Source of the DNA: Barnesiella intestinihominis
Lineage (GTDB): Bacteria; Verrucomicrobiota; Kiritimatiellia; RFP12; UBA1067
Direction: 5' to 3'
Assembly: GCA_963612485.1 (NCBI GenBank)
Contig: CAVDWI010000001.1
Location: forward strand, 1 to 39,079
DNA length: 39,079 nt
Made by a program: the position numbers and the translations under genes. This document shows, piece after piece, positions 1,677-37,327 of this stretch (position 1 is its first letter; every line of letters begins with the position of its first letter). The notes beneath the pieces are model-generated. The model saw only the letters and a list, made by a program, of their open reading frames with translations, was not told the DNA's origin and searched no databases.

Positions 1677-1728
1677 GAAAAAGGGGACTGTCCTTGCAAA
1701 AAGCTCATAAAAGCAAGGACGAGTCCCC
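1677..1728 (-). terminator. Rho-independent terminator ending the secretin gene and the large minus-strand block
   Basis: The minus-strand transcript reads GGGGACUCGUCCUUGC, a 15-nt loop, GCAAGGACAGUCCCC, then UUUUUC. This is a 15-bp stem with one bulge. It lies 22 nt after the TAA stop at 1750..1752. Confidence 0.8.
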
Positions 1729-1749: not shown

Positions 1750-4700
1750 TTATTTGACCTGCGGGGCTTCCTTCACCTCGGCGGTGGATTCGACTCCGCT
1801 CGCGCCCATCGAGACCTCACGGCCGCGAACGTCGACCAGACGCGTAGTGACAAAAATCAGCAGGTTGCGCTTCGTCGTCTGCTCGGCGTGGCTGCGGAAG
1901 AGACGCCCGATGAAGGGAAGGTCGCCGAGGAACGGAACCTTGTCATCCATCGCCTTACGCGCCTCGGTGATGAGCCCGCCCATCACAATCGTCGCGCCCG
2001 GATAAATCGAAACCGACGAATCGACCGATCGCACGTGGAAGAACGGCTGTTCCATCGGCGCATCATAGTAGGTGATGTTGTCCTTGCCAGTCAGATTGCC
2101 CATGGCCGATGTCGCGGAATCCATCAACTGTTCGGTAAACGTCGCCTTCACGGTGTCGGTCAGCGTCGCGCCAATCGTCGTCAGCGCCGCACTCAGACCC
2201 GTGAAGATGTCGCCGATACCCTCGAAACTCTGCATCGAACTGTTGCCGGTGAACGGAATGCGCATACCGTAGTTCTTCCAGGTCGGCTCGTCGACGACCT
2301 GCGTGTTGAGCTTGAGGTCGATTAGGTTGCCGTCGTCCGTCAGCGTCGGGGTGACATCGAGGATAACACCGACTTCGCGCGTGACGAAGCTCTGCGGTTC
2401 AACGACCGCGAGAATCGCGCTCTGTCCGCCGCTGCTGCTGCCCGAACTTGAGGAGGAACTCGACTGCAACTGCACGTCGTAGTCCGTCGGGTAGATGTAT
2501 TCGGTGACGACCTTGATGACGGCCTCTTCGCCCGGACGCGTGAGCACCTTCGGCGCGGAGAGGAGGTCGGTGTCGCTCCGCTGGGAGAGCATATGGAGAA
2601 TCATCGAGAGATCCGCACTGCCGAGGAAGGCGTTCATCCGCATGAACTGGTCGTTCGTGGAACTCTCACTGCCCGAGATGTGGTTGCCGACCGTCGAAAG
2701 ATAGCGATTGCCGTTGCCATAGTCCGAGGAGGACCCGCCGAAGGCGTTGATGCCGATGTTGCTCTTCATCGCGCCCTGACCGCGCGTCCAGTTCGCATTC
2801 TGGCTACGCGAATAGTAGGTCGTCGAACTCTTCCCGGTTGTCTGCGACACCGTCTTCGTCGTAGTTCCGCCCGTGGACCCCGTCTCCACGCTCGATTCGG
2901 AATCAATGGTGGTCGAACTGCTGCTCGTACCCCACGCGCCGTCCTTCACGCCGAGCCACTTGCCGAAACCGCCCATATTGAGGCTGTAGTCGCTGTTGAG
3001 AATCCACTCGAAACCGAGGGAGTTCAGGTCTTCCTGACAGACCTCGACGAAGCGGGCCTCAATCTCAATCAACTTCTGGTCAACGTTGAGTTCGGTGAGG
3101 GCCTTTTCAAGCTCGGCAAGGTTCTCGTAGGTGTTCTTGACGCGGAGTTTGCCAAGGGTCTTGATATAGAGAATCGAGCTGCCCTCCGGCCACTGAACGC
3201 CCATCAGGGAGAAGAACTCCTTCCAGTCACGCTCCTGATTCTCCTCGCCCTCATCGCTTCGGGAGGAACTGCTGCTGCCGAAACTGCTCGACGTCTTCAG
3301 TTCCTTGATGTCGGAAGTCGCGCTGCCGATACGTTCGAGGAACGCCGCGACGACGGGGTAACTGCGCGTCACCATCTCGTCCGTGGACATGTTCTTCGGC
3401 ATGACCATGACAATCGGACCCTGAACCTTGAACTTGTATTCAACCGATTCGCAGACGAGTTTCAGCGCATCGTAGAACGTGATGTTGCTCGCGGTAATCA
3501 TCGGGATCACGGGAACGCCCGACTGACTGGACTGCGCACTGTCATCGACATCGGAACCGAAGCCCGAATCGTCCGTCGTCGCTTCGGCGACCTTCGCGTG
3601 CAGGGTGTTGGGGGTCTTCAGGACGAAGTTGAAGCCGCGCTGGTCAAGGGGAAGGTCGGGGCGGTCGAAGTCCTTCGACGCGCCGCGGAAGTATTCCACC
3701 GCGTCGATAATCGTCGCTGGCGGCTTGAAGGAAATCGTCGGCAGGCTCATCTCGCGCATCCGCTGGATGATGCTCTGTTCGAGCGAACGTTCCGGATCGT
3801 CGCCAAGGCTCTTCTTGACGGTCGTGCCGACAACATCGTCAATCTGCCGCGCATTGGGAGCGTAGACGGGCCGCCAGGCCTTCGTGACATCCGCAATGTA
3901 GCCGTCGCGCGTCGAATCGAACTCCTGCTTCAGGATCGTCTGGCGCTTCTTCTGAATCGCATTGCGCAGGAGAATCGCCTCCTGATTGTAGGGGTCGCTC
4001 ACGAGGACGAGTTCGCACTCGTCGAGCGCACGGTCGATTTCGCGGGTCGAAAGCAACTGCCGCGCACGGCGCAGGTGGGAATGGATTTTCTCGCGGGCGG
4101 CCTTGTAGTCATCCTCATTGCGACGGTGCGTGATTTCCGAGACATCCGTCTTCTGGGCGGAGGGGTCACCTTCCTTCAGCCACGCCTCGAGCTGGCGGCG
4201 CGCCTTCGGATGGCGCATGTCAATCGCCTGTTCAATCAATTCAATCGCCTTCGTGCGCCGACCCGTCTTCTCTTCCTGAAGCGCCGCACGATAAAGGGCC
4301 TCGGCCATTCCCTGTTCACATTCGCGGCGAAGTTTCGCCGAGCCCGGACGGTCGTTCAACAGGCGATAGGCATGACGGTAGTGCTTCTCGGCATCCACGT
4401 ATTCGTCGGACTCCATGCACTGCCGCGCCTCGGCGACCTCGCGACGCGCCTGGGAATCAAACGCCTTGCGGCGCAATTGCTCCATCGCGCTGATATCCGC
4501 CAGCAACTCGGCATCCTTCGACACCGCCGCCGGCTTCTCGACCTTCGCCTCTTCAGCCTTCGCCTCCTCAACAACGGGTGCGGGGACAGGTTCTTCGGCC
4601 TTCACCTCTTCGACCGACTGTTCGGCAACGACAGGCTTCTCGGCTTCCGGCTCTTCGGCAGGTTTCTCTTCGGCGGGTTCCGCAGCCTTCGGCTCTTCGG

Positions 4701-4953
4701 CAACCTCGGCGGGCGCATCGGCCTTCGCCTCCTCTGCCTGTTCGGCCGCGGCGGGTTCGGCCACCGCGACGGGCCCGACCGGCTCGGCGGGCGCTGCCTC
4801 GGCGGGCTTCGGGGCTTCGGTCTGCTCGGTCATCACGTCGCTCTCGAGATCCTTCAAAAGGTCGTCAAGATCATCCTGCGCGAACGCAGAAGAACCAACG
4901 GCCACGAGAGCCACGGTCGCACCGATTGCTGTCAAAGTTTTCAAGTTCGTCAT
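1750..4953 (-). CDS. Secretin-family outer-membrane channel (PilQ/GspD superfamily, occupying the Amuc_1098 position) with atypical extensions
   Basis: The signal peptide is MTNLKTLTAIGATVALVAVGSSAFA|QD. It is followed by a ~130-aa Ala/Glu/Pro/Lys low-complexity spacer and a helical, TPR-like segment. The secretin core motifs are LIEIEARFVEV, LLSAPKVLTRPGEEA and VGVILDVTPTLTDDGNLIDL. The diagnostic C-terminus is KVPFLGDLPFIGRLFRS...RNLLIFVTTRLV. Confidence 0.9.
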   Translation of the reverse strand: MTNLKTLTAIGATVALVAVGSSAFAQDDLDDLLKDLESDVMTEQTEAPKPAEAAPAEPVGPVAVAEPAAAEQAEEAKADAPAEVAEEPKAAEPAEEKPAEEPEAEKPVVAEQSVEEVKAEEPVPAPVVEEAKAEEAKVEKPAAVSKDAELLADISAMEQLRRKAFDSQARREVAEARQCMESDEYVDAEKHYRHAYRLLNDRPGSAKLRRECEQGMAEALYRAALQEEKTGRRTKAIELIEQAIDMRHPKARRQLEAWLKEGDPSAQKTDVSEITHRRNEDDYKAAREKIHSHLRRARQLLSTREIDRALDECELVLVSDPYNQEAILLRNAIQKKRQTILKQEFDSTRDGYIADVTKAWRPVYAPNARQIDDVVGTTVKKSLGDDPERSLEQSIIQRMREMSLPTISFKPPATIIDAVEYFRGASKDFDRPDLPLDQRGFNFVLKTPNTLHAKVAEATTDDSGFGSDVDDSAQSSQSGVPVIPMITASNITFYDALKLVCESVEYKFKVQGPIVMVMPKNMSTDEMVTRSYPVVAAFLERIGSATSDIKELKTSSSFGSSSSSRSDEGEENQERDWKEFFSLMGVQWPEGSSILYIKTLGKLRVKNTYENLAELEKALTELNVDQKLIEIEARFVEVCQEDLNSLGFEWILNSDYSLNMGGFGKWLGVKDGAWGTSSSSTTIDSESSVETGSTGGTTTKTVSQTTGKSSTTYYSRSQNANWTRGQGAMKSNIGINAFGGSSSDYGNGNRYLSTVGNHISGSESSTNDQFMRMNAFLGSADLSMILHMLSQRSDTDLLSAPKVLTRPGEEAVIKVVTEYIYPTDYDVQLQSSSSSSSGSSSGGQSAILAVVEPQSFVTREVGVILDVTPTLTDDGNLIDLKLNTQVVDEPTWKNYGMRIPFTGNSSMQSFEGIGDIFTGLSAALTTIGATLTDTVKATFTEQLMDSATSAMGNLTGKDNITYYDAPMEQPFFHVRSVDSSVSIYPGATIVMGGLITEARKAMDDKVPFLGDLPFIGRLFRSHAEQTTKRNLLIFVTTRLVDVRGREVSMGASGVESTAEVKEAPQVK

Positions 4954-4986
4954 ATCGAAACCTATTCCTTAGATTTTCAGTTGTGT

Positions 4987-5015
4987 ATTATATCCTAATT
5001 CCGCTCACGGTTCAA
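4987..5015 (-). promoter_or_regulatory. Candidate internal sigma70-like promoter in front of the secretin gene (TTGAAC, 17-nt spacer, TATAAT)
   Basis: On the minus strand the -35 is TTGAAC (5010..5015) and the -10 is a perfect TATAAT (4987..4992), separated by 17 nt. The site lies in the AT-rich 51-nt gap and is followed by an AAGGAA ribosome-binding site before the ATG at 4953. Confidence 0.4.
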
Positions 5016-6102
5016 GTGCTTCAAGTGTGCGGGTCTTGCCGCCTTCGGTTTGCTCCAGCGTCACCGCCGCACCTTTCCCCTTGCCACGAATCGCCTTGAC
5101 GACGTATTTCTCGCCATAGAGGGAAATCGTATCGCCCGGCACGACCGTGAACTCCTCGACCCGCGTGTTGCGCGTGAAGACGAGTTTCGCCTGAATGTCC
5201 ACCGGCTTGCGCTGCTCGTCCTTCTGCAGGAGAATCTCCTTCTTGTCCGACTGGCGCATGAGCTGGACGACCGAGACGTCAACCGACTTCTCCATACCGG
5301 CGCCGCCGCCGCTGATTTTCTGCTTCTTGACCTTGTGCTCGTATTTTTTCGCGACGAAGCCCGTGTCGCCGATGACCGCGCCCTCCATCACCGAATAGCG
5401 GTAGCCCGGCGTGCCGTAGTCGTTCTTCCGCTTCGGGTCGTAGAACTCGAGGCGCATGCCGTTCGGCGTCTTCGTCGCCGTGCGGAAGTAGAACGGCAGG
5501 CACGTCTCCTTCAGCGGCAGTTCAATCTTCAGCGAGTCGAGGTAGTCGGGGTGGCTCTTCGCATCCGTCGGATCCGTGCCCGCCTGATACTCCTCAAGGT
5601 TGGTGAAGCCGTCGCCGTCCTTGTCGAGATTCGCATCGCCCGCGTCGTCGGGATTCAGCCCGTAGCGCTTCTCCCATTCGTCCGGCATGCCGTCGCCATC
5701 CGAATCCAGCACGACGACCTTCTCCTCGGGCTGCACCTTCTTGCAGTCCCAGCAGGTCTTCGCGCCAAACGGGATCGGTTCGAGGCAGAACCGACAGGCG
5801 ACGCGCTTTTCCGCCGCGAGAAAACTCGCCTCCGTCCCCTTGATTTCCCTGACCAGCGCCTTGTTGGGCGAGCGGACGAACTCCGCCGCGAGGTTGTATT
5901 CCCGCAGTTCGACGGGGGTCACGCCCTTGCCGTCGCGATTCCGAACGTCCAGGCGCTGGACGGCTTCCGCCGCCGCCGCGTCCGGCTCGACGCCGAATTC
6001 GCCGGCGAAATAGACGATTGCCGCGACGAGCGCGAGAACAGCCCCGCCGACGGCCAGCCACTCGTAGTGGGCGGTGAAGAAATTACCATTCCTTGACTTC
6101 AT
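5005..6102 (-). CDS. Membrane-anchored pilus-system protein (occupying the Amuc_1099 position) with a zinc ribbon and thrombospondin-type-3-like Ca-binding repeats
   Basis: An N-terminal TM helix is present (WLAVGGAVLALVAAIVYFAG). The CxxC...CxxC zinc ribbon is CRFCLEPIPFGAKTCWDC (about 5738..5800). Two DxDxDG repeats, DSDGDGMPDEWEKRYGLNPDD and DKDGDGFTNLEEYQAGTDPTD, map to about 5555..5712. The start overlaps the stop of the upstream gene by 4 nt. Confidence 0.65.
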   Translation of the reverse strand: MKSRNGNFFTAHYEWLAVGGAVLALVAAIVYFAGEFGVEPDAAAAEAVQRLDVRNRDGKGVTPVELREYNLAAEFVRSPNKALVREIKGTEASFLAAEKRVACRFCLEPIPFGAKTCWDCKKVQPEEKVVVLDSDGDGMPDEWEKRYGLNPDDAGDANLDKDGDGFTNLEEYQAGTDPTDAKSHPDYLDSLKIELPLKETCLPFYFRTATKTPNGMRLEFYDPKRKNDYGTPGYRYSVMEGAVIGDTGFVAKKYEHKVKKQKISGGGAGMEKSVDVSVVQLMRQSDKKEILLQKDEQRKPVDIQAKLVFTRNTRVEEFTVVPGDTISLYGEKYVVKAIRGKGKGAAVTLEQTEGGKTRTLEALEP

Positions 6103-7103
6103 TTTCCTTCTCCCTTCCCGTTCTCATCCGGACTTGCGCCCTGCTTCGTGCGGAAGTCGTAGACGGAGAATTTCATCGACACCTTCAGGAGCGAAGCCCG
6201 CGCCGGGTCGGTGACGAGACCTCCCGCAACAAGCCCCTTCCGCTGCGCGGCGTCTTCGTCCGCCGCGTCAGCCCCCCTGTTCCGCCGACGCGAGGAACGG
6301 CGTGCCGGCGCCTCATCCTTCTTCGTCCCCCCGCTCAGCAGGTTCGCGAGCGCGTCCTCTTCGCGGGCGAAACTCATCTCGTCCACCACGATGAAGCGGC
6401 TTGAGGAGACGATTGCGTTGACGGCGTTCACGAGCCCCTGCGGCTTCGCTCGGAAGACGACGGTGAAGGTCGAGACAAGCGGGGCTTTCGCGGCGGCGTC
6501 TTCCTCGGCCTTCGCATTCCGCCGCTTCTTGTTCTTTCGCGCGGCGGCATCCTGCTCTTCCGGGGCGGTGGCCTTCACCTGTCGCACGACGTCCGCGACC
6601 TCGACGACACCCGTCACGGCGAGGGCCTTGATGACGGTCGAGATGTCGTACCACTCACGCTGAAGGGTCGCGAGGTCGGCGTCGGCCGGCATCTTGTCCT
6701 CGGTGATGTACGTACTGAAACCGAAGGCGAAGCCCGGCTTGACGAGCTTGCCGTCGACGCCGCCCGGCAATTCGGCGAGACGGTGCGCATCCTCGACGAG
6801 GAACGACTTGAACGCGGGCGCGGTCGTCTTCTCAAACGAACAGTCACCCTGCGCGGCGAGTTCGTGCGCGGAGGCGCTCCATGTCGCGTATTCCACGCGG
6901 TTCGATTCCAGCGCCTTCACGCCCTTCGGGCCGGGATAGACCGGCTTCGCCATCAGCGTGTTGGCGGAGGCAGTCGCCGCGTTCAGGTCGTCGATCTTCT
7001 CCGACCGATCCGACGCCGCGCTCCAAATCAGGATTCCGAGCGCCAGGGATACCAGCACAATCGCTCCGCCAACGGCGGCCAGGATAATCTTCGGCTTGCT
7101 CAT
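6099..7103 (-). CDS. Amuc_1100-like pilus-associated membrane protein (in the PilO position)
   Basis: The N-terminal TM anchor is IILAAVGGAIVLVSLALGILIW. By eye it is collinear with A. muciniphila Amuc_1100, whose sequence I recalled from memory. Matching pairs are TAPAFKSFLVEDAHRL vs TPTAFQNELKTFRDSL, ATLQREWYDISTVIKALAVTGV vs STLGFELKAINSLVNKLAECGL, FTVVFRAKPQGLVNAVNAI vs LEIAFQGDRESVLKAMNAI, and KVSMKFSVYDF vs QVSLNLVHFN. Synteny also supports the call: the gene sits between the PilM-like gene and the Amuc_1099-like gene. Confidence 0.65.
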   Translation of the reverse strand: MSKPKIILAAVGGAIVLVSLALGILIWSAASDRSEKIDDLNAATASANTLMAKPVYPGPKGVKALESNRVEYATWSASAHELAAQGDCSFEKTTAPAFKSFLVEDAHRLAELPGGVDGKLVKPGFAFGFSTYITEDKMPADADLATLQREWYDISTVIKALAVTGVVEVADVVRQVKATAPEEQDAAARKNKKRRNAKAEEDAAAKAPLVSTFTVVFRAKPQGLVNAVNAIVSSSRFIVVDEMSFAREEDALANLLSGGTKKDEAPARRSSRRRNRGADAADEDAAQRKGLVAGGLVTDPARASLLKVSMKFSVYDFRTKQGASPDENGKGEGK

Positions 7104-9438: not shown

Positions 9439-9456
9439 GCTTCGATCCTTTCTTTT

Positions 9457-10446: not shown

Positions 10447-10458
10447 TCGTTCTGTTGC

Positions 10459-11496: not shown

Positions 11497-11514
11497 TTCT
11501 GAGAATCTCCTTTG

Positions 11515-24689: not shown

Positions 24690-24705
24690 CTTGAAATCTT
24701 TCTTC

Positions 24706-25122: not shown

Positions 25123-25186
25123 CTTTCCTGTTTCCTTGAATTGTATCATAAACCGCCGTTCGTGCGCAAGTGTCGTATGTGTTCCC

Positions 25187-28100: not shown

Positions 28101-31100
28101 AGCAGGCGGAAGACGCCCCTCACGGGTCGGTCTTCGTTGTTGTGCCAGCCAAGGTAGATGACCTTCGTGCCCGTGCCGTTCGTCGCTAGCACGCTGTCCC
28201 CCTCATAGCCCGCGCTCGCGGGGCCGAACTTACGAATCGTCGTCCACTGCCCCGCACCCGTACCCTCGATGAGAGAGGAATTGAGGATGCTCATCTGCCG
28301 CGAGACGTCGTTCGTCGCGACCTGCACCCAGATTTCGGCGTTCGTATCCGCCCCGCTGTAGGTGAACGCGAACTTGCCGAGACCCGCGAGCAACGGCGAG
28401 CGCATCGACACGGGACTCGTCGTCAGCGCCCGCGACGGCTGCAGGATGACCTCGCGGACGGAACTCGTCTTCTGCGTCACCACGCCCTGCGTGTAGATGA
28501 AGTCGCTCTGGCTGTTGTAATAAGGGGTCTCGAGATTCGGGGCCTGCCACTGCGTCTGGATGATGTCGTCCACGACAACGTCCACGGACTGGTCGTCGCC
28601 CGTCTTGAGCCGCAGGTCGAACGTACCCGTGCGGTGAACCGGCACCGTCCGCTTGTCCGAGAAGGCGAAGCCCGAAACGGAGACGGCATCCTGCAGCGTC
28701 CACTGATTCGCGCCCTTCGGGCTCAGCCAGACTTCCAGGTTCTGCACGAGGTTGGTCGGCGTCCGCAGACCATACAGGGGATACGACCCAGACGTTGTGC
28801 TCACATCGTTCGTGAAGTACTCCGTCCGTCCCGGAATCTTCGACCAACGCCGCGTCGTCAAGTCGGACTGGTCGAGGCTGTAGTCGTTCAGCCCGAGGTT
28901 GACGTTCGTCTTGAATACGCCGCCGCTCGCCGCCGATCGAATGTTCGCCGCGTCCGCCAATACATGACCCGTCTCGGTGTGCGACAGCAGGACAAACCGC
29001 GCAGGGCAATCCTTCGCTCCCACGCCGAACGCGCCGCAGTCATACGGCGAGTCCGAATCCGTGTAGATCAACCCCGAATGTTCCTCCCCGGAGAAGATTG
29101 CGACATCATGATTCGAGGAATTCATAAGCTGCGGTTTGGTCGAGAGGCCGCAGATGATCTCCGTGCCGCCGTCGGTGCCGTCACCGCAGGAGATGAACGC
29201 ACCGTAAAACTTACCCGCGACATCAGTGTCCGTCCCGTCCTTCACCCACGCCGAGGAACTCACGTAGGTGTAGGCGAGCCGCGTACTCGTCGAGTTGCCG
29301 CCGGTCGCGGATTTCCACTTGTAGAGTTCGAGCAGCAGCGACGCAGACGTCCCCTTATACGGCCGCGAGATGCGGAACTCGTAGCACCCGATGCTCGGAT
29401 AGTAGTAGGCGACGAGCGAGACGGAGGCCCCGACCGCCATGTCGCCGATTTCCGTGCCGTCCATCTTGCAGCTGCGGCTCATGACGAGCGGCGCGTGGAA
29501 GACGTAGTTGTCGCTCACCATCGCGTCCATCCGGCAGCTGAACGAGTCGAACGTCATCGACTGGCCGATGCGCGTCTTGAACTGCACCTCGCCGAGCCCG
29601 GACGGCGTATTCGCCGACGTGAACTCGAGCACGCCGCTGCCATTGCCGAGCAACTTCGCCGCGAGACCGCCCGACTTGTTCACCGCGTTGGATGTGACGA
29701 GGCTCTCGCCCACCCACGAGACGTTCTGCGCCGCCCAGCCGTTCGGCGTCGTCGTGCGCTGGTAGACCACGTCCTTCGGATAATCCGGGACGGTGTAGTC
29801 CTGAAGATAGAACGTCTCGTTCCAGCCGGCGTTCGTGCTGACGTAGGTCGCCCAGTTCGAGAAGTTGTTCGTGTAGGTCTGCATCGCCGCGTAATCGACG
29901 GAGTTCGTCTCGGCGTAGTTGATCTTGAACTTCGTGCCGGCGGCGGCGTCGTTCCAGTGGTTGAAGTCCTGGTATTCCGCACGGGTGATGGCGTAGGTCT
30001 CATAGCGGTCGTTCAACTTGAACTCGAGGTAGTTCGCCACGTTGTCGGGCGTCACCCAGCCGTCGAGCGTGCCGCCCCGCACGATCTTGCCCGTGGCGGG
30101 CACGTCGTTCGTCGCCGCCGTGGCGACGCCCCACGCAATCGCCTCGGGGTCGGACGGAATCTCCGTCGCGCCGGCTTCGAGTTCGTTGAAGCCCTCGAAG
30201 TGGAAGCGCACCGTCTCGGAGGTGTTCGTCGGCACGAGCACGAGCGCCCGCCAGGTGTTGTCCGCGATCAGCTCCATGTCGTAGTCGCCCGCGATGCCGC
30301 CCGCCGTGCCGCCCTCGAGCACGACCCGCATCGACGCCCAGTTGCTCGCGCCGCGCCTGAGGCGCACGAACCAGTCCGTGCCGCCGCTCGCGAGCCGCTG
30401 GTTCCCGAGCCCCGTCAAGTCCATGCGGTTCGTCACCGCCCGCAGTTCCTCCGTGTAGTCGCCCGTCGGCTTCGCCACCCCGCACCCCGAATAGTCCTGG
30501 TACGAGTAGAACGGCGCCTGCAGCGTGAGGTCGTAGAAGAACTCGATGTCGCCCTCCGCCGCCGGGAACGCGAGCGGCTCGATTGACCGGAAGCCGTTCT
30601 CTATGTCGAGGAACACCGTCTTCCAGTTGTCCGTGTCGTCCGACCCCTTCGCCGGACTGAACCGCTGGTTCAGGTAGCGCCACCGGTAGTTGAGCCGGGC
30701 GGACGCGATGAAGTTCGTATCCGCAATCGCCACGCCCGGCGTCACCACGTTCGTCGCCGTCGCCCGCGCATACACCTCGGTATCGGACGCGGACGGGAAC
30801 GGAATCGAGAACGCGCACTCCTGGCCGAGCGTCTGCTTGCCCATCTTCGTCTCGTCGTAGTAGCCAATCGGACTCAAATCCGCATACATCGCCGGCGGCG
30901 ACGCAATGATGTTGTCGAGAAGAAGAAAATATTGATATGCGTCGTCAGCAGAAGTAGTCGAACTCGTTCGCCGAATCCTGAATCGAACGGGTCCGCGGAC
31001 GTTCACCTCCGCAATACCGCGCACGAACTTATCCGTCTTGCCGCCACCCGAAAAACCGAGCAAGTCGAGTTCCGTGCGCTTTTCCTGCGCCTCGAACTCG

Positions 31101-34015
31101 GCCGTCCCCTCGGCCGTCCCGTTCTTGACGAGCGGCAGAATGGAGACTGCCCGCCACTGATTGCGCACCTTCCAGTAAGGGTCCTCCTCACCCAGCGTAT
31201 TCGCGCCGGCGCAGTTTTCATCCGTCGGCGGCAAGCCCTCCTCCGTCTCGGTGGCGATTTCCACCACCAACTTAAAGTCCTCGGCATTGCCTCTATATCC
31301 ATTCACCGCATCGAAGTAGACAACTCCAATGCCATTCGTGTAACAGGGCGAGTAAACCGCCGCCTCCGTCGTATTCCGCAGAACGATATTGCCGACTTCC
31401 TCATTCGCATCCGTCCGCGTCGGAAACGCCTTGGTTTCGGACGAAATCGACTTTGATGTACTTGACCACGGGAGGTAGTTCGCGTAACTATACGTTTGGG
31501 GACCCCTGATGAAAATGTTACCAATCAGTCCATTGGCGATATGCCACAACCGATTTGTCTTATCCCCTTCCGCTGAATATAAGGTATGATGAATGCCGGC
31601 AAGTAAATACGCATAATTTCTGTGAGCATTATGAGTCTCACTGCTATGTTCCCAGAAGATGGAATGTCCCGTGGCGGCAGTCTGCCAGTAGCCCTGGTCG
31701 GTGATGGCGTCGCGCCCGTCGCCGCCCGTGTCGTCGTTGACGAGCAGAATGCGGCCTTCCGCCGTCGCCCCGACCGACGACACGGGCGAATGACCGAGAA
31801 TCTCGAACGCCAGCCGACGCTCGCCGCCGAGAAGCGCGTAGTCCGCGCCCATTCCCGCCATCGTCAGCACCGCCCGATAGGAGCCCCGCACCGTCGGCAT
31901 CGCGTCCAGTTCCGTCCCGCTCGGCAGCTTCTGATAAGTTACCTTGACCGACCCGACCTTCAGTTCGCCCGCCGAAATCACGCCCGCCGTCTCGCCTTCA
32001 TCCCATGTCGTCTTCGTGATGGAAGGTTCTGTCGTCCAGTAGTTGATCCACACGCCGTTGCTGCAGACGAGCCCGTAGCCCGTCGCGGCAGTTCCAGCGG
32101 AAAGACTCGCCGCGCCCGCATCGTTCGCGCTCGTCGGCTCGTCCACGCCCGCGTGCCAATACATCCGAATCGGACTCGCCGCCCCCACCCCGCTCGGCAG
32201 GAGGACGCGCATCGTCGATTCGCCCGACACGTTCCACGTCAGGTTCGAATACGGCAGAAGAATGTCGTGGAGCGGGTCTGTCGTCGGCGAATAGACGAAT
32301 CGGAAGGCGTTGTTCTTCAGCCCGTCCGTCCGGTCGTAGAGAAAGCCCGGCAGACCCGATTCCGAAACCGTGATATCGACCGCCCCCGCCGTCGCGGCGT
32401 TCGTCACGTCGATGTAGTCGGTGTATTCCGCCGACGGATTCCGCCACACGCGGAATGTCGCCGTCGCGCTCGCCCCCTCCCAGTTATCCGCCTCCGCCAG
32501 CGTGGCGCGGACGGTGTACCGTCCCGCCGCCGTCGGCGGTGTCCGCGTCCAGTCGGTGGAGGATTCGGGGCAATACTCATAGTAGATGTCGCCGATTAAG
32601 CCGTAGGTGACCGAAGAAACGGACGGCGAGGAGACGGTTGCCCCCGTCTGCCAGTCTTCAATCGACAGCCCCGTGATTGCGTTCGCCGCCTTCTTAATCG
32701 TCCAGTCGCAAGAAATCGCGTCGGTCGTCCCGTCGTCCGCCCACACGCGGTTGGTAATGCTCGCGCTGTTGCCCTTCAGAACCGCCGCACACGTGTAGTC
32801 GCCCGCGTTCGTCGCCTCGGGCGTTCCCTTGCGGTCGTAGTCGTCCGACTCTTCAAGGGCGACGCGCACCACCCCCGTCTCATAGGTGAACTCCGTTGCG
32901 AAAGTTGGGCGGGCGACAGTCTGCCGCGCAATCGACCAGTTGTAGGATCTCGGTTCGGTCGTTCCATCCGACCATTCATACCCTTCTTCGTTGAGCGTCA
33001 CGGTGAACGAATAGCTGCCCGTATCCGTCGCCTTATCCGAACCCGCCGTAACCGTATAGAACGCGCGGTTCGGATCATTCGGGTCAAATGCGGACTGCTC
33101 TTCGCCGTTGTAGACGAGATCTTCGTAGACAGTCGGGGGCGTCACGCCCGAATCGAGGTAGGCGGTAATGCGCACAATCAGGACACCGCTACCGCCCTTG
33201 CCAGCAACGGCAGTAGCATGTGTACCGCCGCCACCGCCGCCGCCACCGAGACCATCAGTGCCATTCACGAGTTCAATATCATCTGCGGAGACAGCAGTAC
33301 GGCCGCCGAGACCCTTACCGCCACCGCCCTCACCGCCGAAGCTCTTACCGGTCATCGAGGCGTAAAAATTGCCGCCGCCGCCACCACCACCGTAGAACAC
33401 GCTTTCACCGGTGATGTCGCTCGCAATGCCATCACCGCCATTGGCTCCGCTGATGGTGCTCGTTGGCGCGACACCAGCAGCCCCCGCACCGCCACCGCCG
33501 CCACCGCCGTAACGAAATGCACCGTCACCACCTTTATTTCCTTGACCAGTTGTCCCAGATCCTCCACTCTGTGCAACATCGGCAAGCATCGAACCGCCGC
33601 CGCCGCTACCGCCTTCCAAGCCCGCACATTCAGCACCACCGCCGCCGCCACCCTTGGCAACGGCAATGACCGCCGAACCGTCCTGAAGGAAAGAAGTGTC
33701 GCCGCCCGTAGTTCCCGGATTGCTGACTTTCGAGCCGTACGCACCAGCCTCGCCACCCGCGCCGACCGAAATCGTATACGTGCCGCGCAAGGATATGTTG
33801 TCCGCGATGACGACGCCACCGCCACCGCCACCGCCGCCACCGCCGGGACCGAGCGTCAATTTCGTCACGCGCCCGCCGCCGCCGCCGCCGCCAACCGCGA
33901 GAATCCGCGCCGACGCCGTCTTCGGCAATTTCAGTTTGCCGACCGTCGTCGGGTCAGAATAGGTGATGACGAGGTCGCCTTCCACCCAGTTCGTCGTGCC
34001 GCCCTCGAACACCAC
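25187..34015 (-). CDS. Giant secreted protein (at least 2,942 aa) with an N-terminal glycine-rich domain, MBG-like Ig repeats, a large beta-rich body and a lamin-tail-like domain. The true start is probably the ATT at 34123 (see findings).
   Basis: An uninterrupted ORF. The ORF-track start is GTG at 34013..34015, but the 36 in-frame codons upstream encode a textbook signal peptide. The glycine-rich domain and the lamin-tail-like (LTD) domain are annotated separately. The repeated pattern Y-x-G...G-x-Y-x-V-x-A...W-x-I resembles MBG-type repeats (for example GSYSFTVTLNEEGYEWSDG...YNWSI and AGDYTCAAVLKGN...CDWTI). Confidence 0.88.
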   Translation of the reverse strand: MVFEGGTTNWVEGDLVITYSDPTTVGKLKLPKTASARILAVGGGGGGGRVTKLTLGPGGGGGGGGGGVVIADNISLRGTYTISVGAGGEAGAYGSKVSNPGTTGGDTSFLQDGSAVIAVAKGGGGGGAECAGLEGGSGGGGSMLADVAQSGGSGTTGQGNKGGDGAFRYGGGGGGGAGAAGVAPTSTISGANGGDGIASDITGESVFYGGGGGGGNFYASMTGKSFGGEGGGGKGLGGRTAVSADDIELVNGTDGLGGGGGGGGTHATAVAGKGGSGVLIVRITAYLDSGVTPPTVYEDLVYNGEEQSAFDPNDPNRAFYTVTAGSDKATDTGSYSFTVTLNEEGYEWSDGTTEPRSYNWSIARQTVARPTFATEFTYETGVVRVALEESDDYDRKGTPEATNAGDYTCAAVLKGNSASITNRVWADDGTTDAISCDWTIKKAANAITGLSIEDWQTGATVSSPSVSSVTYGLIGDIYYEYCPESSTDWTRTPPTAAGRYTVRATLAEADNWEGASATATFRVWRNPSAEYTDYIDVTNAATAGAVDITVSESGLPGFLYDRTDGLKNNAFRFVYSPTTDPLHDILLPYSNLTWNVSGESTMRVLLPSGVGAASPIRMYWHAGVDEPTSANDAGAASLSAGTAATGYGLVCSNGVWINYWTTEPSITKTTWDEGETAGVISAGELKVGSVKVTYQKLPSGTELDAMPTVRGSYRAVLTMAGMGADYALLGGERRLAFEILGHSPVSSVGATAEGRILLVNDDTGGDGRDAITDQGYWQTAATGHSIFWEHSSETHNAHRNYAYLLAGIHHTLYSAEGDKTNRLWHIANGLIGNIFIRGPQTYSYANYLPWSSTSKSISSETKAFPTRTDANEEVGNIVLRNTTEAAVYSPCYTNGIGVVYFDAVNGYRGNAEDFKLVVEIATETEEGLPPTDENCAGANTLGEEDPYWKVRNQWRAVSILPLVKNGTAEGTAEFEAQEKRTELDLLGFSGGGKTDKFVRGIAEVNVRGPVRFRIRRTSSTTSADDAYQYFLLLDNIIASPPAMYADLSPIGYYDETKMGKQTLGQECAFSIPFPSASDTEVYARATATNVVTPGVAIADTNFIASARLNYRWRYLNQRFSPAKGSDDTDNWKTVFLDIENGFRSIEPLAFPAAEGDIEFFYDLTLQAPFYSYQDYSGCGVAKPTGDYTEELRAVTNRMDLTGLGNQRLASGGTDWFVRLRRGASNWASMRVVLEGGTAGGIAGDYDMELIADNTWRALVLVPTNTSETVRFHFEGFNELEAGATEIPSDPEAIAWGVATAATNDVPATGKIVRGGTLDGWVTPDNVANYLEFKLNDRYETYAITRAEYQDFNHWNDAAAGTKFKINYAETNSVDYAAMQTYTNNFSNWATYVSTNAGWNETFYLQDYTVPDYPKDVVYQRTTTPNGWAAQNVSWVGESLVTSNAVNKSGGLAAKLLGNGSGVLEFTSANTPSGLGEVQFKTRIGQSMTFDSFSCRMDAMVSDNYVFHAPLVMSRSCKMDGTEIGDMAVGASVSLVAYYYPSIGCYEFRISRPYKGTSASLLLELYKWKSATGGNSTSTRLAYTYVSSSAWVKDGTDTDVAGKFYGAFISCGDGTDGGTEIICGLSTKPQLMNSSNHDVAIFSGEEHSGLIYTDSDSPYDCGAFGVGAKDCPARFVLLSHTETGHVLADAANIRSAASGGVFKTNVNLGLNDYSLDQSDLTTRRWSKIPGRTEYFTNDVSTTSGSYPLYGLRTPTNLVQNLEVWLSPKGANQWTLQDAVSVSGFAFSDKRTVPVHRTGTFDLRLKTGDDQSVDVVVDDIIQTQWQAPNLETPYYNSQSDFIYTQGVVTQKTSSVREVILQPSRALTTSPVSMRSPLLAGLGKFAFTYSGADTNAEIWVQVATNDVSRQMSILNSSLIEGTGAGQWTTIRKFGPASAGYEGDSVLATNGTGTKVIYLGWHNNEDRPVRGVFRLLVPTNVVTAALAAATNSTPNLDYGRITITGITVTDEPGISERSWRGWNMRTVGDELDFEHRMYLADMTQTGGEGYGLVCGLNNGVWPEDLETDDDMTRVVSGYPAVYSPTFSTNVAGRVGIGSVTYRARLYEDSAQTTGGGQVIGYGSTDPLYGKWVPIFTNAVTSPVFSDFSWTAGSESYYAVKFEITGASLDEKVAPTAAPVDRVILDEIFVGEKVQPTLAFVYARPFRNNLMSTDPVADILSANEQPLAGESWGVQAQLTLQQLADEVDLSRGLKVSLSYYSGDTPWGYDNWKDLASAVTDIELTQVGDATNLIFRSVGTTPAELVPPAVKAGVFVQFMLKVTYYDRGGREYESLMSSWTQPTWYYPIDKNGTGTGGYDSEDFSRYSAYTILDSVSPGRAWINEVNWNDGRASETDGVRCETNQFIEICVPSGADMNGWRVRVRNNQNGEKTLARFGVTVPATTVTTKAVSGYEFVVLQSPKSRDAGGVTNWTHLAAGDVSLGTWPTNLFENAQDEGSLSYSMPYQFELIRPSGVIEHQFVLSGTNIWSVWDIGARFDGTNLVAELNAADSSPLRFYAGDELARRTSGELYGSAGVTGGTATGEPAPGAKGTWKSGLTFTPGTINEGQTIPEGWLIRPNGTNAWVYLNVIGEHLSQAIGGETNRSAVVIVPQGISTNVTYTAEPWYELAVLTENGVTNAVNRPGTYVHTVTPTGQTHIVEAREGVDNRLANDFGLDEKNVYTPAVLNWLRANWPDKTAEDIRLAYYRGLSATADTVDLGLTEMYWLDIPPVTESGEREWWLRGDMSNIQGETHVITRTYGGVAHELTNRIVGVTLYITNAVAGGAASAPCRLQGVNNEQSDTFTGNMWTSVTFKVRAALDVNGMGQEGSKNKGYLPFRQFTFGPGSFDENFSARIEIIDPFSTLSPGYGYGWSNYPNTTNMFFRWSIDTDLIPFAVPVLKANNTYESE
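26650..26900 (-). other. Lamin-tail-domain-like (LTD) segment in the 2,942-aa protein
   Basis: AWINEVNWNDG...NQFIEICVPSGADMNGWRVRV...GYEFVVLQS resembles the LTD pattern (INEV..., EFIELxN..., dLsGW..., ...yvVl). Confidence 0.5.
33165..33907 (-). other. Glycine-rich domain (runs of G6-G10) at the N-terminus of the 2,942-aa protein
   Basis: The segment runs RILAVGGGGGGGRV ... GPGGGGGGGGGGVVIADN ... AKGGGGGG ... YGGGGGGGAGAAG ... YGGGGGGGNFY ... GLGGGGGGGGTH ... GKGGSGVLIVRI. This is the layout of the glycine-rich domain found in phage fibre-like and bacterial surface proteins. It is encoded by GGN/GCC trinucleotide runs, for example a perfect (CCG)6 at about 33873..33892. Confidence 0.7.
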
Positions 34016-34118
34016 GTCTTCCGCCAGCCCGCCGGACGCGACAAGTGAAAACCCGACCGCAAACGCCGCGAACAGCGTCTGCCGGATTTTCGACGGGGCG
34101 AAAGGTTTGAAGAACTTT

Positions 34119-35120
34119 TTAATCTTTTAACTCCTTGTAGGTCTGCCCGTCAAAGGCAACGTCCTTGCCCTCGCAGAGTAGCGCCGTCAACTGGGCGGCG
34201 GATAGCCCGCCGCTCTCCACCCAGGTGATCTTCGCCGCGTGTCCGTCGGCATAGGCGACGTGACCGACGAAACTGCGCTTGCCGAGTCGGTGGTTGAAGC
34301 CGATCGATTCGGCTGTTCCGCCCCAGCTCGAGCCGTAGGTTCCGCTGTCCACCGTGGCGCGATACTGCAGGGTGCAGTCCGCCACCGCACCACTCTCATC
34401 CGACACCGGGCTCGTCGTCTGGCCCTCGATCTTCCACATCGGCAGTTCCGCGAACATCAGCGTGCGGTCGGCGCGCGAGAGGTTGCCGTAGCGGATGCCA
34501 CCGCCCACCGCGCGCGAGCCCTCCGAATAGTCGTAGCCGAACTTCGAATTCATCACGTAACTCCAGTAGGGCGCCGTCATCTTCTTGTCCTTGCGATACC
34601 GCACGTGCGTCGGACACGTGTAAATCGAGCGGTTCTTGCCCGTCGCCTCCCAGATCGCCCCGTTCGTGATGGCGAACGTCGTGTCATCCTCGTTCGCCGC
34701 GCCGTAGAACGGACAGACGTCGAACGCCTTGTAGCTCGGCTCATAGCCATTACCCGACTCCTTGTGGAACTCGGAGTCTTTCGAGAGCCAGTTGATCCAG
34801 CCCCGCGCCTCGAAGTAGCCCGTCTTCGCGCCGACGATGCCGACGTATTCGTAGGCCCCCGCCGCCGGATACCAGCCGTTGCGCATGGCGGTGGCGTTCG
34901 CGGCCTGCGCGAGGCTCTTCATGTTCGAGAGGCATTGCGCGGCGCGGGCGGACTCCGTCGCGCCGCCGAACGCGACCGCCATCACGCCGGCGAGAACGGC
35001 GATGATGCCGATCACCACGAGAAGCTCGATCAGCGTAAACGCGGCGCACGAACGGCGGCGCAATCTCGCCGCACGGTCGAAATTATTCAAGGGCATAGTC
35101 ATCCTTACTTTCATTATCAT
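34119..35120 (-). CDS. Prepilin-type N-terminal cleavage/methylation-domain protein (DUF1559/H-X9-DG-like pseudopilin)
   Basis: AFTLIELLVVIGIIAVLAGV is the class III signal / N-methylation motif. ESARAAQCLSNMKSLAQA matches the DUF1559-type helix, and the C-terminal FNH...GHVAYADGHAAKI is H-X9-DG-like. The probable start is the ATG at 35096 (MPLNNFDRAARLRRRSCA|AFTLIE), with an AAGGA ribosome-binding site 6 nt upstream. The ORF-track start at 35120 coincides with the predicted transcription start. Confidence 0.85.
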   Translation of the reverse strand: MIMKVRMTMPLNNFDRAARLRRRSCAAFTLIELLVVIGIIAVLAGVMAVAFGGATESARAAQCLSNMKSLAQAANATAMRNGWYPAAGAYEYVGIVGAKTGYFEARGWINWLSKDSEFHKESGNGYEPSYKAFDVCPFYGAANEDDTTFAITNGAIWEATGKNRSIYTCPTHVRYRKDKKMTAPYWSYVMNSKFGYDYSEGSRAVGGGIRYGNLSRADRTLMFAELPMWKIEGQTTSPVSDESGAVADCTLQYRATVDSGTYGSSWGGTAESIGFNHRLGKRSFVGHVAYADGHAAKITWVESGGLSAAQLTALLCEGKDVAFDGQTYKELKD

Positions 35121-35125
35121 TACGA

Positions 35126-35155
35126 ATTATAGCACAACCCGCCCGTCCGTTGCAA
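35126..35155 (-). promoter_or_regulatory. Strong sigma70-like promoter at the head of the 33-kb block (TTGCAA, 18-nt spacer, TGcTATAAT)
   Basis: On the minus strand the -35 is TTGCAA (35150..35155) and the -10 is a perfect TATAAT (35126..35131), separated by 18 nt. The -10 is preceded by a TGn extended element. The predicted TSS is about 35118..35120. Confidence 0.55.
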
Positions 35156-35498: not shown

Positions 35499-35511
35499 TC
35501 CCCCCTCCCCC

Positions 35512-37201: not shown

Positions 37202-37219
37202 CGCCAACCCCACTCCCAC

Positions 37220-37244: not shown

Positions 37245-37278
37245 CCCCCCTGCCCCCCGCCATCCCAAAAAACACGAA

Positions 37279-37302: not shown

Positions 37303-37327
37303 CCGCGTTTCGCCTTTCAGCGTCCGC

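Follow-up and report, generated by a model that had tools for sequence, protein, structure and literature searches.

The window, by which we mean the whole stretch of 39,079 nt that was analysed, belongs to a gut/rumen Kiritimatiellae genome and contains an array of four modules (A to D) arranged in one long co-directional run. All twelve minus-strand open reading frames listed by the sequence-only reading were present at their places. A base-by-base check returned the start/stop overlaps as described, namely GAATGA at 12657-12660, TAATG at 8713 and ATGA at 7100-7103 and 6099-6102, and the ATT/TAA overlap at 34121 was likewise found as ATTAA. The gap range given there, -4 to 51 nt, holds if an ATT start is accepted for the second gene, but not if that gene is counted from its GTG start, which leaves a gap of 103 nt.

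Module A is a type-IV-filament accessory unit made up of a secreted Flg_new-type protein, a prepilin-type (pseudo)pilin (g01) and a translationally coupled, Sec-exported Gly_rich_2 giant (g02) of about 2,980 aa. The g01 gene (34119..35120, minus strand) encodes 325-333 aa, and its description as a pseudopilin was borne out by matches to PF07963 (28.3 bits, cut-off 21.2) and TIGR02532 (21.4 bits, cut-off 16.3), by a canonical signal peptide of class III and by the fold of a pilin. The family signature comprises F at +1 (116/119), E at +5 (119/119) and A or G at -1, with Ala rather than Gly in half of the family. The AF2 model (pLDDT 92) shows an alpha1 helix spanning residues 30-81 that is followed by a beta-rich head, for which Foldseek matched no known pilin head fold. 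The more specific label of an H-X9-DG pilin does not apply literally: unlike the H-X9-DG prepilin-like proteins, g01 has H-x14-DG, and the PF07596 and TIGR04294 profiles did not match it, PF07596 being present on some of its homologues.

The giant encoded next (25187..34123, minus strand) matched Pfam Gly_rich_2 with E = 3.4e-15. Counted from the GTG at 34015, its reading frame covers 25187-34015 and 2,942 aa. Between the in-frame stop (34129-34127) and this GTG no ATG, GTG or TTG occurs, and the stretch encodes a good Sec signal peptide, KKFFKPFAPSKIRQTLFAAFAVGFSLVASGGLA|EDV, which is kept in orthologues that carry an ATG or TTG start at the equivalent place. Because the conserved signal peptide precedes the first canonical start and orthologues start there, we take the protein to be ~2,978 aa long, with ATT as the probable start codon. 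Both giants had been described as Ca-binding-repeat proteins; this was confirmed for the 4,010-aa g04 with its 12 DxDxDG motifs but not for g02, as a motif scan of the 2,942-aa protein found none. Being devoid of TSP3/DxDxDG repeats, g02 is therefore no Ca-binding-repeat protein. The Gly_rich_2 giant family is small: at 50% identity, only 341 clusters out of 1.84 billion representatives belong to it. Its full-length members almost all have 2,000-5,700 aa and share a C-terminal module of ~1,140 aa.

The Flg_new-type gene (37328..38950, minus strand; Pfam Flg_new, E = 1.6e-11) lies outside the region treated in the sequence-only reading. Its product starts at M27 with the signal peptide MKKLLIASMAAALTAGAWA, is 50% identical to the product of the gene upstream of the pseudopilin in locus L025, and resembles, over its N-terminal ~280 aa, the genes at the same position in L027, L028 and L029. 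These similarities make it the probable first gene of the module with pseudopilin and giant. Behind it lies a strong hairpin with a T-run (37304..37277), and in the window it is separated from g01 by a Fic-domain gene on the opposite strand (35597..37201, plus strand; Pfam Fic, E = 8e-14). The Fic gene is bracketed by 45-nt direct repeats (35467-35511 and 37213-37257, 89% identical) and is missing from the equivalent position in L025; it is probably an insertion and no part of the system.

Two copies of a 112-nt element, 1480..1591 on the left and 35252..35363 on the right, form an inverted repeat (90% complementary) that brackets the twelve genes exactly, as would be expected if the 33.7-kb block were a mobile or invertible island. 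We consider this very improbable, since the element on its own already forms a palindromic, REP/MITE-type hairpin (-45.6 kcal/mol), the Fic gene next to the block is bordered by another pair of repeats, and about 110 related loci, in none of which the element was found, have the same gene order nonetheless. Furthermore, the block holds core metabolic genes, and the window contains no transposase or recombinase gene.

Module B consists of a small lipoprotein and the 4,010-aa protein with beta-sandwich domains, TSP3 Ca-binding repeats and LamG. The lipoprotein gene g03 (24706..25149, minus strand; 147 aa) stands between both giants and is conserved at the equivalent position in L024, L025 and L026; its lipobox reads AAGC in the window and LVGC in orthologues, the C-terminal part is helical and a family search gave no match. 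The surface-type giant g04 (12657..24689, minus strand) carries a Sec signal peptide, as does g02, together with TSP3_bac and Laminin_G_3. Its C-terminal 711 aa were modelled as a chain of Ig/FN3/macroglobulin-like beta-sandwiches ending in a small alpha/beta domain, with no autotransporter barrel. Both giants lack a PEP-CTERM ending, and neither showed a signal for an alternative route of outer-membrane export. The fixed position of the g04 locus together with its fast-diverging sequence is as expected for an exposed adhesin.

Module C comprises the housekeeping genes ackA (acetate kinase, 11515..12660; PF00871, E = 3.9e-131; TIGR00016, 438.7 bits, cut-off 293), pta (phosphotransacetylase, 10459..11496; PF01515, E = 7.5e-96; NF007233, 332 bits, cut-off 310) and a kdsD/kpsF-type arabinose-5-phosphate isomerase gene (9457..10446; TIGR00393, 291 bits, cut-off 204; SIS and CBS domains), all on the minus strand. 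These genes 5-7, located between the giants and the pilus genes, are absent from the earlier reading. In the window the ackA ATG overlaps the g04 stop (ATGA, verified); in relatives the giant stop and the ackA start are 7-92 nt apart, as measured in the loci where the alignment reaches the giant C-terminus.

The five distal genes, also on the minus strand, form module D, which by its domain content is the putative envelope-spanning part of a type-IV-filament machine, with Amuc_1102-like, PilM-PilN, Amuc_1100/1099-like and secretin components. The first of them, g08 (8713..9438), encodes a protein with a signal peptide that is identical at 240 of 241 positions to an L114 protein carrying PF28178 (Amuc_1102); the sole PDB match of its family profile was 7DSZ (Amuc_1102), a weak one with E = 0.84. 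A PilM-PilN fusion of the Amuc_1101 family follows (g09, 7100..8713; PilM_2, E = 7.6e-41; TIGR01175, 158 bits, cut-off 133; Amuc_1101_fam, 396 bits, below the cut-off of 650), with an INLLP motif at residue 355, a TM segment at 368-399 and a periplasmic domain extending to residue 537. In the PilO position, g10 (6099..7103) encodes a bitopic protein with an N-terminal TM segment; the identical L114 protein carries PF28028 (Amuc_1100), NF038287 scored 66.7 bits (below its cut-off of 180) and the best PDB matches of the family profile were 6KNY and 6LAD (Amuc_1100) with E = 0.031. The PilP position is taken by g11 (5005..6102), an Amuc_1099-family protein (NF042425, 73.2 bits, cut-off 50) that is anchored by an N-terminal TM segment and has TSP3 repeats (TSP3_bac, E = 6.4e-10) with 2 DxDxDG motifs. 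The last gene, g12 (1750..4953), encodes a PilQ-like secretin of 1,067 aa with a signal peptide (Secretin, E = 1.2e-31; Amuc_1098_fam, 415 bits, below the cut-off of 750).

The five genes thus were correctly recognized as an Amuc_1102-to-1098-type cluster of the same order, although its members are distant homologues: the HMM check placed Amuc_1099 above its cut-off, but the 1098, 1100 and 1101 matches below theirs. The pili-like cluster of Akkermansia muciniphila has the same five families in the order 1102, 1101 (PilM-like), 1100, 1099 and 1098 (secretin) (PMC5332112), as defined by NCBIfam NF042912, NF042425, NF038287 and NF045709 and by Pfam PF28028 and PF28178. The pattern of signal peptides and membrane anchors is also alike, and the TSP3-type repeats of g11 lie within the stretch that the Amuc_1099 family model covers. 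Unlike in Akkermansia, the window cluster is joined in an operon with kdsD, pta, ackA and the 4,010-aa gene, and the relationship is distant (three of four NCBIfam matches below equivalog cut-offs; PDB profile E = 0.03-0.8).

The strong terminator proposed for the tail of the array (1677..1728, minus strand) was confirmed: UUUUU follows a 15-bp stem with a folding energy of -27.9 kcal/mol (z = -5.6), and none of 200 shuffles folded equally well. Upstream of g01, the proposed head promoter (35126..35155, minus strand) exists as a sigma-70-like match in 10/12 positions, with TTGCAA, an 18-nt spacer, TATAAT and an upstream TG, but such sites were no commoner than in shuffled controls (4 versus 1.8 +/- 1.5 and 5 versus 3.1 +/- 1.8). 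The internal site before the secretin gene (4987..5015, minus strand; TTGAAC, 17-nt spacer, TATAAT) also matches in 10/12 positions; it had been regarded as the single further promoter-like site, but weaker 9/12 sites occur inside genes too.

All comparative data come from relatives that form one clade. Among loci with a PilM identity of 45-79%, g08 was kept upstream of PilM in 81/81, kdsD in 67/68, pta in 55/56, ackA in 44/44 and the TSP3/LamG giant in 40/40, the giant lying directly upstream of ackA in all 40 informative loci. The order giant-ackA-pta-kdsD-pilus genes was the same in every checkable relative, and the order pseudopilin, Gly_rich_2 giant, small lipoprotein, TSP3 giant was kept in all three close relatives (L024, L025 and L026); the proposed linkage hence was not refuted in related genomes. 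The genes past the secretin vary in at least five ways, and the flanking genes fba, Fic and Flg_new of the window had no match in L001-L019. As ackA, pta and kdsD intervene and are equally strictly conserved, synteny alone argues for co-transcription and not for physical partnership.

This conservation could reflect co-expression only, in a highly expressed 'super-operon' of unrelated envelope and fermentation genes, in which the giants are ordinary Sec-dependent adhesins or periplasmic proteins that take another route and the Amuc-type genes encode a conventional pilus that does not handle them. Three unrelated housekeeping genes conserved as strictly as the giant fit such an arrangement, and so does a condensed 938-aa g04 paralogue in an unrelated context (L020/L021). 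Close to the Amuc_1098-1102 cluster of A. muciniphila lies lgt (Amuc_1104), and no giant gene was reported there (PMC6538878). The proteins of this cluster rank among the most abundant of the Akkermansia envelope (PMC5332112), which would agree with a strong promoter in common. However, co-expression would leave the coupling of the g01-type pseudopilin to the Gly_rich_2 giant unexplained, as well as the attachment of this pair to a core filament operon (see below); the flanks rearrange freely and the giant/ackA junction is never broken, and in neither giant was a signal for another outer-membrane export route seen. We regard co-expression only as a rather unlikely explanation, though one to be taken seriously.

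The coupling was seen in 7/7 contexts (the window and L024-L029) with a pseudopilin at least 47% identical to g01: each time a Gly_rich_2 giant, orthologue or paralogue, followed, the junctions being stop/start overlaps or gaps of 0-90 nt. Pseudopilin and Gly_rich_2 giant are a separate, autonomous module, and some of the seven contexts are without the pilus cluster. In two genomes (L028 and L029) a core filament operon carries the pair at its end. Their cassettes are collinear with the operons of L110-L113, in which a g01 homologue, with no giant, closes a series of PilC/GspF, ~7 prepilin-type genes and a gene for a ~1,050-aa protein, and beyond this series they go on with a Flg_new-like gene, the pseudopilin and the giant. 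The suggestion that missing machine parts act in trans is borne out by these separate platform (PilC/GspF) and pilin operons with the g01-type pseudopilin in last place; platform protein and other pilins are encoded elsewhere, as presumably are ATPase and prepilin peptidase.

Alternatively, g01 might be non-filamentous, a DUF1559-like inner-membrane chaperone or anchor for the giant, with the secretin cluster uninvolved. PVC bacteria have strongly expanded prepilin-like families of the DUF1559/H-X9-DG type, for which, to our knowledge, no fibre role has been demonstrated; this agrees with such a function in the same way as PF07596 on some g01 homologues, the head domain unmatched among known pilins and the Ala at -1. 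Yet the near-invariant E at +5 and F at +1 are features needed for pilin processing and assembly, and the g01 family stands last in operons otherwise composed of platform protein and pilins; a chaperone or anchor role thus seems improbable to us.

Known systems offer several parallels to a filament-based reading. Type IVa machines of P. aeruginosa and M. xanthus have a PilMNOPQ alignment subcomplex with secretin and a minor-pilin/PilY1 tip complex. Module D resembles them in its PilM actin-like domain, PilN INLLP and TM segment, bitopic PilO/PilP-position proteins and secretin, and in having its genes separate from those for pilins, platform and ATPase; a large non-pilin protein with genetic links to minor pilins is shared as well. 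In contrast to type IVa systems, PilM and PilN make up a single fusion protein, an Amuc_1102-type protein comes in addition, and the PilO and PilP Pfam profiles had no match in the window cluster; the giant, roughly three times as large as PilY1, lacks the beta-propeller domain of PilY1/PilC. In CofB-CofJ (ETEC), TcpB-TcpF (V. cholerae) and the T2SS pseudopilus tip with its cargo, release or display needs a filament machine and a secretin. The adjacency of a dedicated (pseudo)pilin gene and a Sec-exported non-pilin gene is similar in the window, where a like dependence may exist, but CofJ/TcpF-type cargo has 30-40 kDa and T2SS cargo up to ~150 kDa, whereas the window giants have ~300-430 kDa and no sequence or fold similarity to them. 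Like the Verru_Chthon cassette of the PVC lineage (TIGR02596, TIGR02598, TIGR02599, TIGR02600), the relatives combine several prepilin-type genes with a large protein; matches to cassette proteins B, C and D were weak, far below cut-offs and confined to the N-terminal helix, and the giant partner (Gly_rich_2) is not cassette protein A. Size, beta-sandwich repeats, Ca-binding repeats (g04) and rapid divergence recall T1SS RTX adhesins (LapA) and T9SS SprB; unlike these, both window giants have N-terminal Sec signal peptides, no RTX/T1SS C-terminal signal or T9SS C-terminal domain was seen on them, and no T1SS genes are nearby.

We propose, at roughly even chances, that a filament machine composed of the trans-encoded platform and module D handles g01 and the Gly_rich_2 giant. 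In this scheme, g01 would undergo pilin-like processing, and the trans-encoded platform, together with module D, would insert it into a short filament, probably at the tip. The Gly_rich_2 giant would enter the periplasm via Sec, dock on its cognate pseudopilin and then either pass through the secretin or be presented there, much as in the tip complex of minor pilins and PilY1 or in the pairs CofB-CofJ and TcpB-TcpF. The TSP3 giant, co-expressed with module D, might be a second passenger of the same secretin or merely a co-regulated surface protein. The link to a filament has good support in the case of the 2,942-aa giant; in that of the 4,010-aa giant, only operon membership supports a putative link. 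Export of the giants would take place via the secretin. Several observations speak against filament handling: the T2SS cargo and pilus tip proteins known to date are smaller by a factor of 5-20, module A is also found at a distance from any Amuc-type cluster (L027, L029), and members of the g01 family can stand without a giant (L110-L113).

Altogether, gut/rumen Kiritimatiellae keep part of a pilus/secretion-type machine, genes for acetate fermentation and the gene for a 4,010-aa surface protein together in a conserved operon, and a pilin-like gene recurs in coupling with a second protein of ~3,000 aa, which suggests that their pilus-type machines may display giant proteins.

All twelve genes that the sequence-only reading had placed on the minus strand between 35120 and 1750 (g01 to g12, in transcription order) were found as open reading frames, and the start/stop overlaps it had listed were exact (GAATGA at 12657-12660, TAATG at 8713, ATGA at 7100-7103 and at 6099-6102). 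The terminator it had seen at the tail (1677-1728) proved a convincing intrinsic hairpin with a 15-bp stem (-27.9 kcal/mol, z = -5.6) followed by a U-run. Its two promoter sites were present at 35155..35126 and 5015..4987, each agreeing with the consensus at 10/12 positions, but the number of such matches did not exceed that in shuffled controls, and the consensus promoter scan thus gave the promoters no statistical support. Rfam families and tRNAs were not found in the window.

Outside the twelve-gene block are genes for a class II fructose-bisphosphate aldolase (207-1211), for a Fic-domain protein on the plus strand, opposite to the block (35597-37201), and for a Flg_new-repeat protein on the same strand as the block (37328-39028); a 12-bp GC-rich hairpin with a T-run lies on the 3' side of this last gene (37304..37277). 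The Fic gene separates the Flg_new gene from the pseudopilin gene g01 and is bracketed by 45-nt direct repeats that are 89% identical (35467-35511 and 37213-37257). Since the Flg_new and pseudopilin genes directly adjoin in one related locus (L025), the Fic gene looks like an insertion. The whole block is in turn bracketed by a 112-nt inverted repeat with 90% complementarity (1480-1591 and 35252-35363). Either copy alone folds into a strong palindromic hairpin (-45.6 kcal/mol) and contains GCAAAG/CTTTGC units and a AATCCTGTCAATCCTGTCT tail; the element resembles a REP/MITE element and is absent from all of the approximately 110 related loci, and for these reasons a mobile island was rejected as an explanation of the flanking repeats.

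The five distal genes had been said to reproduce the order of the Akkermansia muciniphila pilus-like cluster, and this was borne out: g08 to g12 correspond to Amuc_1102, 1101, 1100, 1099 and 1098, all on one strand, their junctions being overlaps of 1 or 4 nt and, once, a 51-nt gap. The family assignments held in part. The g11 protein passed the cut-off of the Amuc_1099 family NF042425 (73.2 bits, cut-off 50), whereas g12 stayed below the equivalog cut-off of Amuc_1098_fam (415 bits, cut-off 750, E = 1e-124), g09 below that of Amuc_1101_fam (396 bits, cut-off 650, E = 4e-118) and g10, with a weak match, below that of Amuc_1100_fam (66.7 bits, cut-off 180, E = 2e-18). For these three, the E-values therefore speak for homology and not for equivalog status. 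In a second assembly of the same locus (L114), a protein with the same sequence as g10 has a precomputed Pfam annotation as PF28028 (Amuc_1100), and one with 240/241 identity to g08 as PF28178 (Amuc_1102); a direct search of the window's g08 and g10 with a local Pfam copy gave no Amuc_1102 or Amuc_1100 match. When profiles of homologues were run against the PDB, the g10 family had the Akkermansia crystal structures 6KNY and 6LAD as its top matches (E = 0.031), and 7DSZ, another Akkermansia crystal structure, was the sole, weak match of the g08 family (E = 0.84). Single-sequence PDB searches with g08, g10, g11 and both giant proteins of the locus (g02 and g04) returned nothing useful.

In g09 the PilM actin-like domain was recognized by PF11104 (PilM_2, E = 7.6e-41) and TIGR01175 (158 bits, cut-off 133), and a PilN part is fused to this domain, with an INLLP motif at residue 355, a transmembrane segment at 368-399 and a periplasmic domain reaching to residue 537; the LLPP motif was invariant in the PilM-PilN alignment. 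The g12 protein carries a Secretin domain (PF00263, E = 1.2e-31) with the PilQ and GspD equivalog models below their cut-offs, and both g08 and g12 have signal peptides. PilO and PilP models of Pfam and NCBIfam did not match g10 or g11, which share with PilO/PilP only their position and an N-terminal membrane anchor. Between this anchor and its TSP3 repeats, g11 has a zinc-ribbon-like CxxC...CxxC stretch at residues ~100-125 (CRFCLEPIPFGAKTCWDCKK). Functionally, g08-g12 thus read as a PilM-N, O-position, P-position and secretin set together with an Amuc_1102-type protein, and as judged from these matches they are distantly homologous to the Akkermansia cluster without being its equivalog. For the Akkermansia cluster, published descriptions go no further than 'pili-like' and a very high abundance in the envelope (PMC5332112; PMC10688800), and in A. 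muciniphila lgt lies near Amuc_1102 (PMC6538878).

As the sequence-only reading had noted, the window encodes no extension ATPase, PilC/GspF platform protein or prepilin peptidase among all ORFs of at least 100 aa, and neither an extension ATPase nor a prepilin peptidase was seen in any related locus fetched. The platform protein of the relatives scores equally as PilC and as GspF. A type II secretion system was not supported: the GspD score (123 bits) fell short of its cut-off (351), the inner-membrane components belong to the PilM/PilN type, unlike GspL/GspM, and GspG/GspH matches were confined to the N-terminal helix, with no pseudopilin above the cut-off.

Upstream of the pilus-like genes stand three genes that the earlier reading did not mention and that change how its link between giant and pilus genes should be read: g05, acetate kinase (ackA), g06, phosphotransacetylase (pta), and g07, a KdsD/KpsF sugar-phosphate isomerase (kdsD), each above its curated cut-off. 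The stop codon of g04, the giant gene that precedes them, overlaps the ackA start (ATGA, 12657-12660), an unusual translational coupling of a giant adhesin-like gene to a core fermentation gene. Where alignments of relatives extend to the C-terminus of the giant, the gap to ackA is 7-92 nt.

The conservation of this block was followed in 19 species-level loci from a genome scan (L001-L019, all from gut/rumen Kiritimatiellae/Verrucomicrobiota MAGs), in 80 more from a metagenome scan with a divergent PilM alignment as query (mostly the same clade, PilM identity 50-73%) and in two further loci reached via the g04 C-terminus (L022 and L023), so that the comparison covers one gut/rumen clade. Apart from three exceptions the order was kept in every locus compared, down to a PilM identity of 45% (L022), and where enough upstream sequence was available g08 was present in 81/81 loci, kdsD in 67/68, pta in 55/56, ackA in 44/44 and a g04 homologue in 40/40. 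The exceptions were L022, with an H+-pyrophosphatase gene inserted between pta and kdsD (13670-15943), L107, which has lost kdsD and retained giant-ackA-pta, and L104, where about 1.4 kb on the upstream side of kdsD is unmatched and pta had no match. The block is conserved beyond background, because the window's own flanking genes had no match in L001-L019 and what follows the secretin gene varies among these loci in at least five ways. Throughout the clade, then, the genes of the envelope conduit appear to be locked in one operon with those for fermentation, for Kdo precursors and for a giant surface protein, which from these comparisons would be a new arrangement.

The sequence-only reading had spoken of two giants with Ca-binding repeats; this holds for g04, with TSP3_bac repeats and 12 DxDxDG motifs, but not for g02, which has an N-terminal Gly_rich_2 domain and no such repeats. 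The g04 protein (4,010 aa) further has a Sec signal peptide and a Laminin_G_3 domain. Homologues were sought with its C-terminal 711 aa, and the matches returned were fragments of up to 1,243 aa. In its fixed position the sequence is hypervariable, with a median C-terminal identity of 32%, where PilM has 60% and ackA 82%; the identity of the giant was not correlated with that of PilM. The conserved C-terminal 711 aa were modelled as a chain of Ig/FN3/macroglobulin-like beta-sandwiches (pLDDT 82), and the model points to an adhesin or stalk architecture with no enzyme fold. Self-BLAST found no internal sequence repeats in g02 or g04. Two loci contain a 938-aa 'condensed' paralogue of g04 (L020, 10001-12817; L021, 4220-7036) that aligns at about 45% identity with residues 1666-1967, 2903-3162 and 3326-3834 and sits in unrelated surroundings, among small unannotated genes beside a 2,681-aa LPD38-domain protein. 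A phage origin of this context in L020 was not accepted, the weak tail-fibre PHROG matches being limited to one neighbour.

What would tie g04 to the secretin is its strict operon membership and the TSP3 repeat type that it has in common with g11. The membership is shared with ackA, pta and kdsD, and the main rival explanation is co-expression without any physical coupling. That g04 is a passenger of the g12 secretin is on these grounds a tentative proposal, and we consider it rather doubtful.

At the head of the locus, in g01 (34119-35120), the prepilin N-methylation domain claimed earlier was confirmed by PF07963 and TIGR02532, both above cut-offs, and this prepilin motif was the sole family match. 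The protein has the features of a class III signal peptide, with A at -1; in an alignment of 119 sequences of its family, F occupies +1 in 116/119 and E +5 in 119/119, and position -1 is A in 63 and G in 56, so that about half of the family has Ala and not the canonical Gly there. The predicted leaders range from 4 to about 50 residues. An AF2 model (pLDDT 92, pTM 0.84) showed the pilin fold, a 52-residue alpha1 helix (residues 30-81) and a beta-rich head; Foldseek against the PDB gave no significant match for this confidently modelled head. The proposal that g01 is an H-X9-DG pilin was not supported, as PF07596 and TIGR04294 did not match at E < 0.01 and the motif is NH-x14-DG or H-x4-DG. Because some g01 homologues carry PF07596, the DUF1559/H-X9-DG family is related to that of g01, but g01 itself is no clear DUF1559 member.

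An ATT/TAA overlap at the start of g02 had also been remarked upon, correctly: from the in-frame stop at 34129 to the GTG at 34015 no canonical start codon occurs. The stretch between them (34129-34015) encodes a good signal peptide that gene callers missed. Because the peptide is also conserved in orthologues whose start codon at the corresponding site is ATG (L026) or TTG (L025), g02 is probably about 2,978 aa long rather than 2,942, starting from a non-canonical ATT (34123) that overlaps the pseudopilin stop, and translationally coupled to g01. The same ATTAA overlap as at 34121-34123 was found in L024 (at about 2870).

Orthologues of g01 share 68-87% identity and stand apart from a large cloud of paralogues at 55% or less. 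In three orthologue contexts, and the region upstream of the TSP3 giant was seen in these three close relatives only, the pseudopilin gene is followed by a Gly_rich_2 giant (2,973-3,052 aa), a lipoprotein of ~142 aa (147 aa and without family match in the window, g03) and a TSP3/LamG giant of about 4,000 aa, while the gene 5' of the pseudopilin varies. Three more distant homologues (47-51% identity) also directly precede Gly_rich_2 giants, of 3,261-3,366 aa; unrelated genes (FTHFS, guanylate kinase) come next after the giant in L027 and L029, where neither a TSP3 giant nor a pilus cluster lies nearby, and in L028 the giant runs past the end of the fetched locus. The giant family is small and specific, with 341 clusters at 50% identity among 1.84 billion representatives; full-length members are nearly all 2,000-5,700 aa long, and all share a module of ~1,140 aa at the extreme C-terminus.

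In two other cases a g01 homologue (40% and 46% identity, respectively) closes a filament operon, with no giant following. This operon encodes a PilC/GspF platform protein, about seven prepilin-type proteins and a conserved protein of ~1,050 aa. The cassettes 5' of the pseudopilin-giant pairs in L028 and L029 are collinear with it gene for gene, and therefore the core filament operon of these genomes reads on directly into the Flg_new-like gene, pseudopilin and giant. In L025, L027 and the window, too, the pseudopilin has a Flg_new-type gene before it. The ~1,050-aa protein always lies between the minor-pilin genes and the terminal pseudopilin (L112, 6866-9994; L110, 6776-9982; L029, 2983-6057; L028, 1779-5003), a PilY1-like position without PilY1 similarity, and it had no Pfam or NCBIfam match.

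Known partners of (pseudo)pilins are found in the minor-pilin/PilY1 complex and in the CofB-CofJ and TcpB-TcpF pairs, and the pairing proposed here for g01 and its giant would be analogous to these. By Pfam and NCBIfam both g02 and g04 lack the C-terminal beta-propeller of PilY1/PilC tip adhesins, and their sole resemblance to these is genetic coupling to a (pseudo)pilin. Starting from the gene identities, couplings and conservation observed here, we propose that g01 would be a subunit, probably a tip or minor one, of a type-IV-filament machine whose platform and pilins would be encoded elsewhere and whose envelope conduit would be formed by g08-g12. After export by Sec, the Gly_rich_2 giant would dock on the cognate pseudopilin, to be carried to, or displayed at, the secretin. 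We give this part of the model an even chance. The more general proposal, that gut/rumen Kiritimatiellae export or display proteins of 300-430 kDa via a filament/secretin machine, with interchangeable pseudopilins and Gly_rich_2 giants as adaptor-passenger pairs and the TSP3/LamG giant hard-wired into the PilMN/O/P/secretin conduit operon, is possible, though we consider it less likely than not.

In the literature searched there was no earlier description of pseudopilin/giant pairs or of a giant-ackA-pta-kdsD-pilus operon. From the comparisons made, the pilus-like genes appear to be a new, distant member of the Amuc_1098-1102/PilMNOPQ kind, and what also appears new is the recurrent, tight coupling of an uncharacterised giant family to a pseudopilin family that ends a core filament operon. 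The whole is best placed among the type IV filament systems that have tip or passenger proteins and does not call for a category of its own.

The Amuc_1098-1102 proteins are under development as therapeutics, and we know of no function assigned to the hundreds of prepilin-like genes in PVC genomes. The locus bears on how diderms without T1SS, T5SS or T9SS signals place giant proteins on their surface, and it yields a specific, testable genetic hypothesis, in which pseudopilin and giant are coupled and the conduit genes stand in an operon with another giant. If the proposal were refuted, a clear and strictly conserved operon mixing fermentation, LPS-precursor and pilus genes would remain. If true, it would define a class of passengers roughly ten times the size of any T2SS- or T4P-dependent protein known so far and would give the expanded prepilin-like families of PVC bacteria their first concrete function. 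Its confirmation would widen the range of cargo known for secretin-based machines and point to proteins by which abundant uncultured bacteria of rumen and gut probably adhere to host or fibre.
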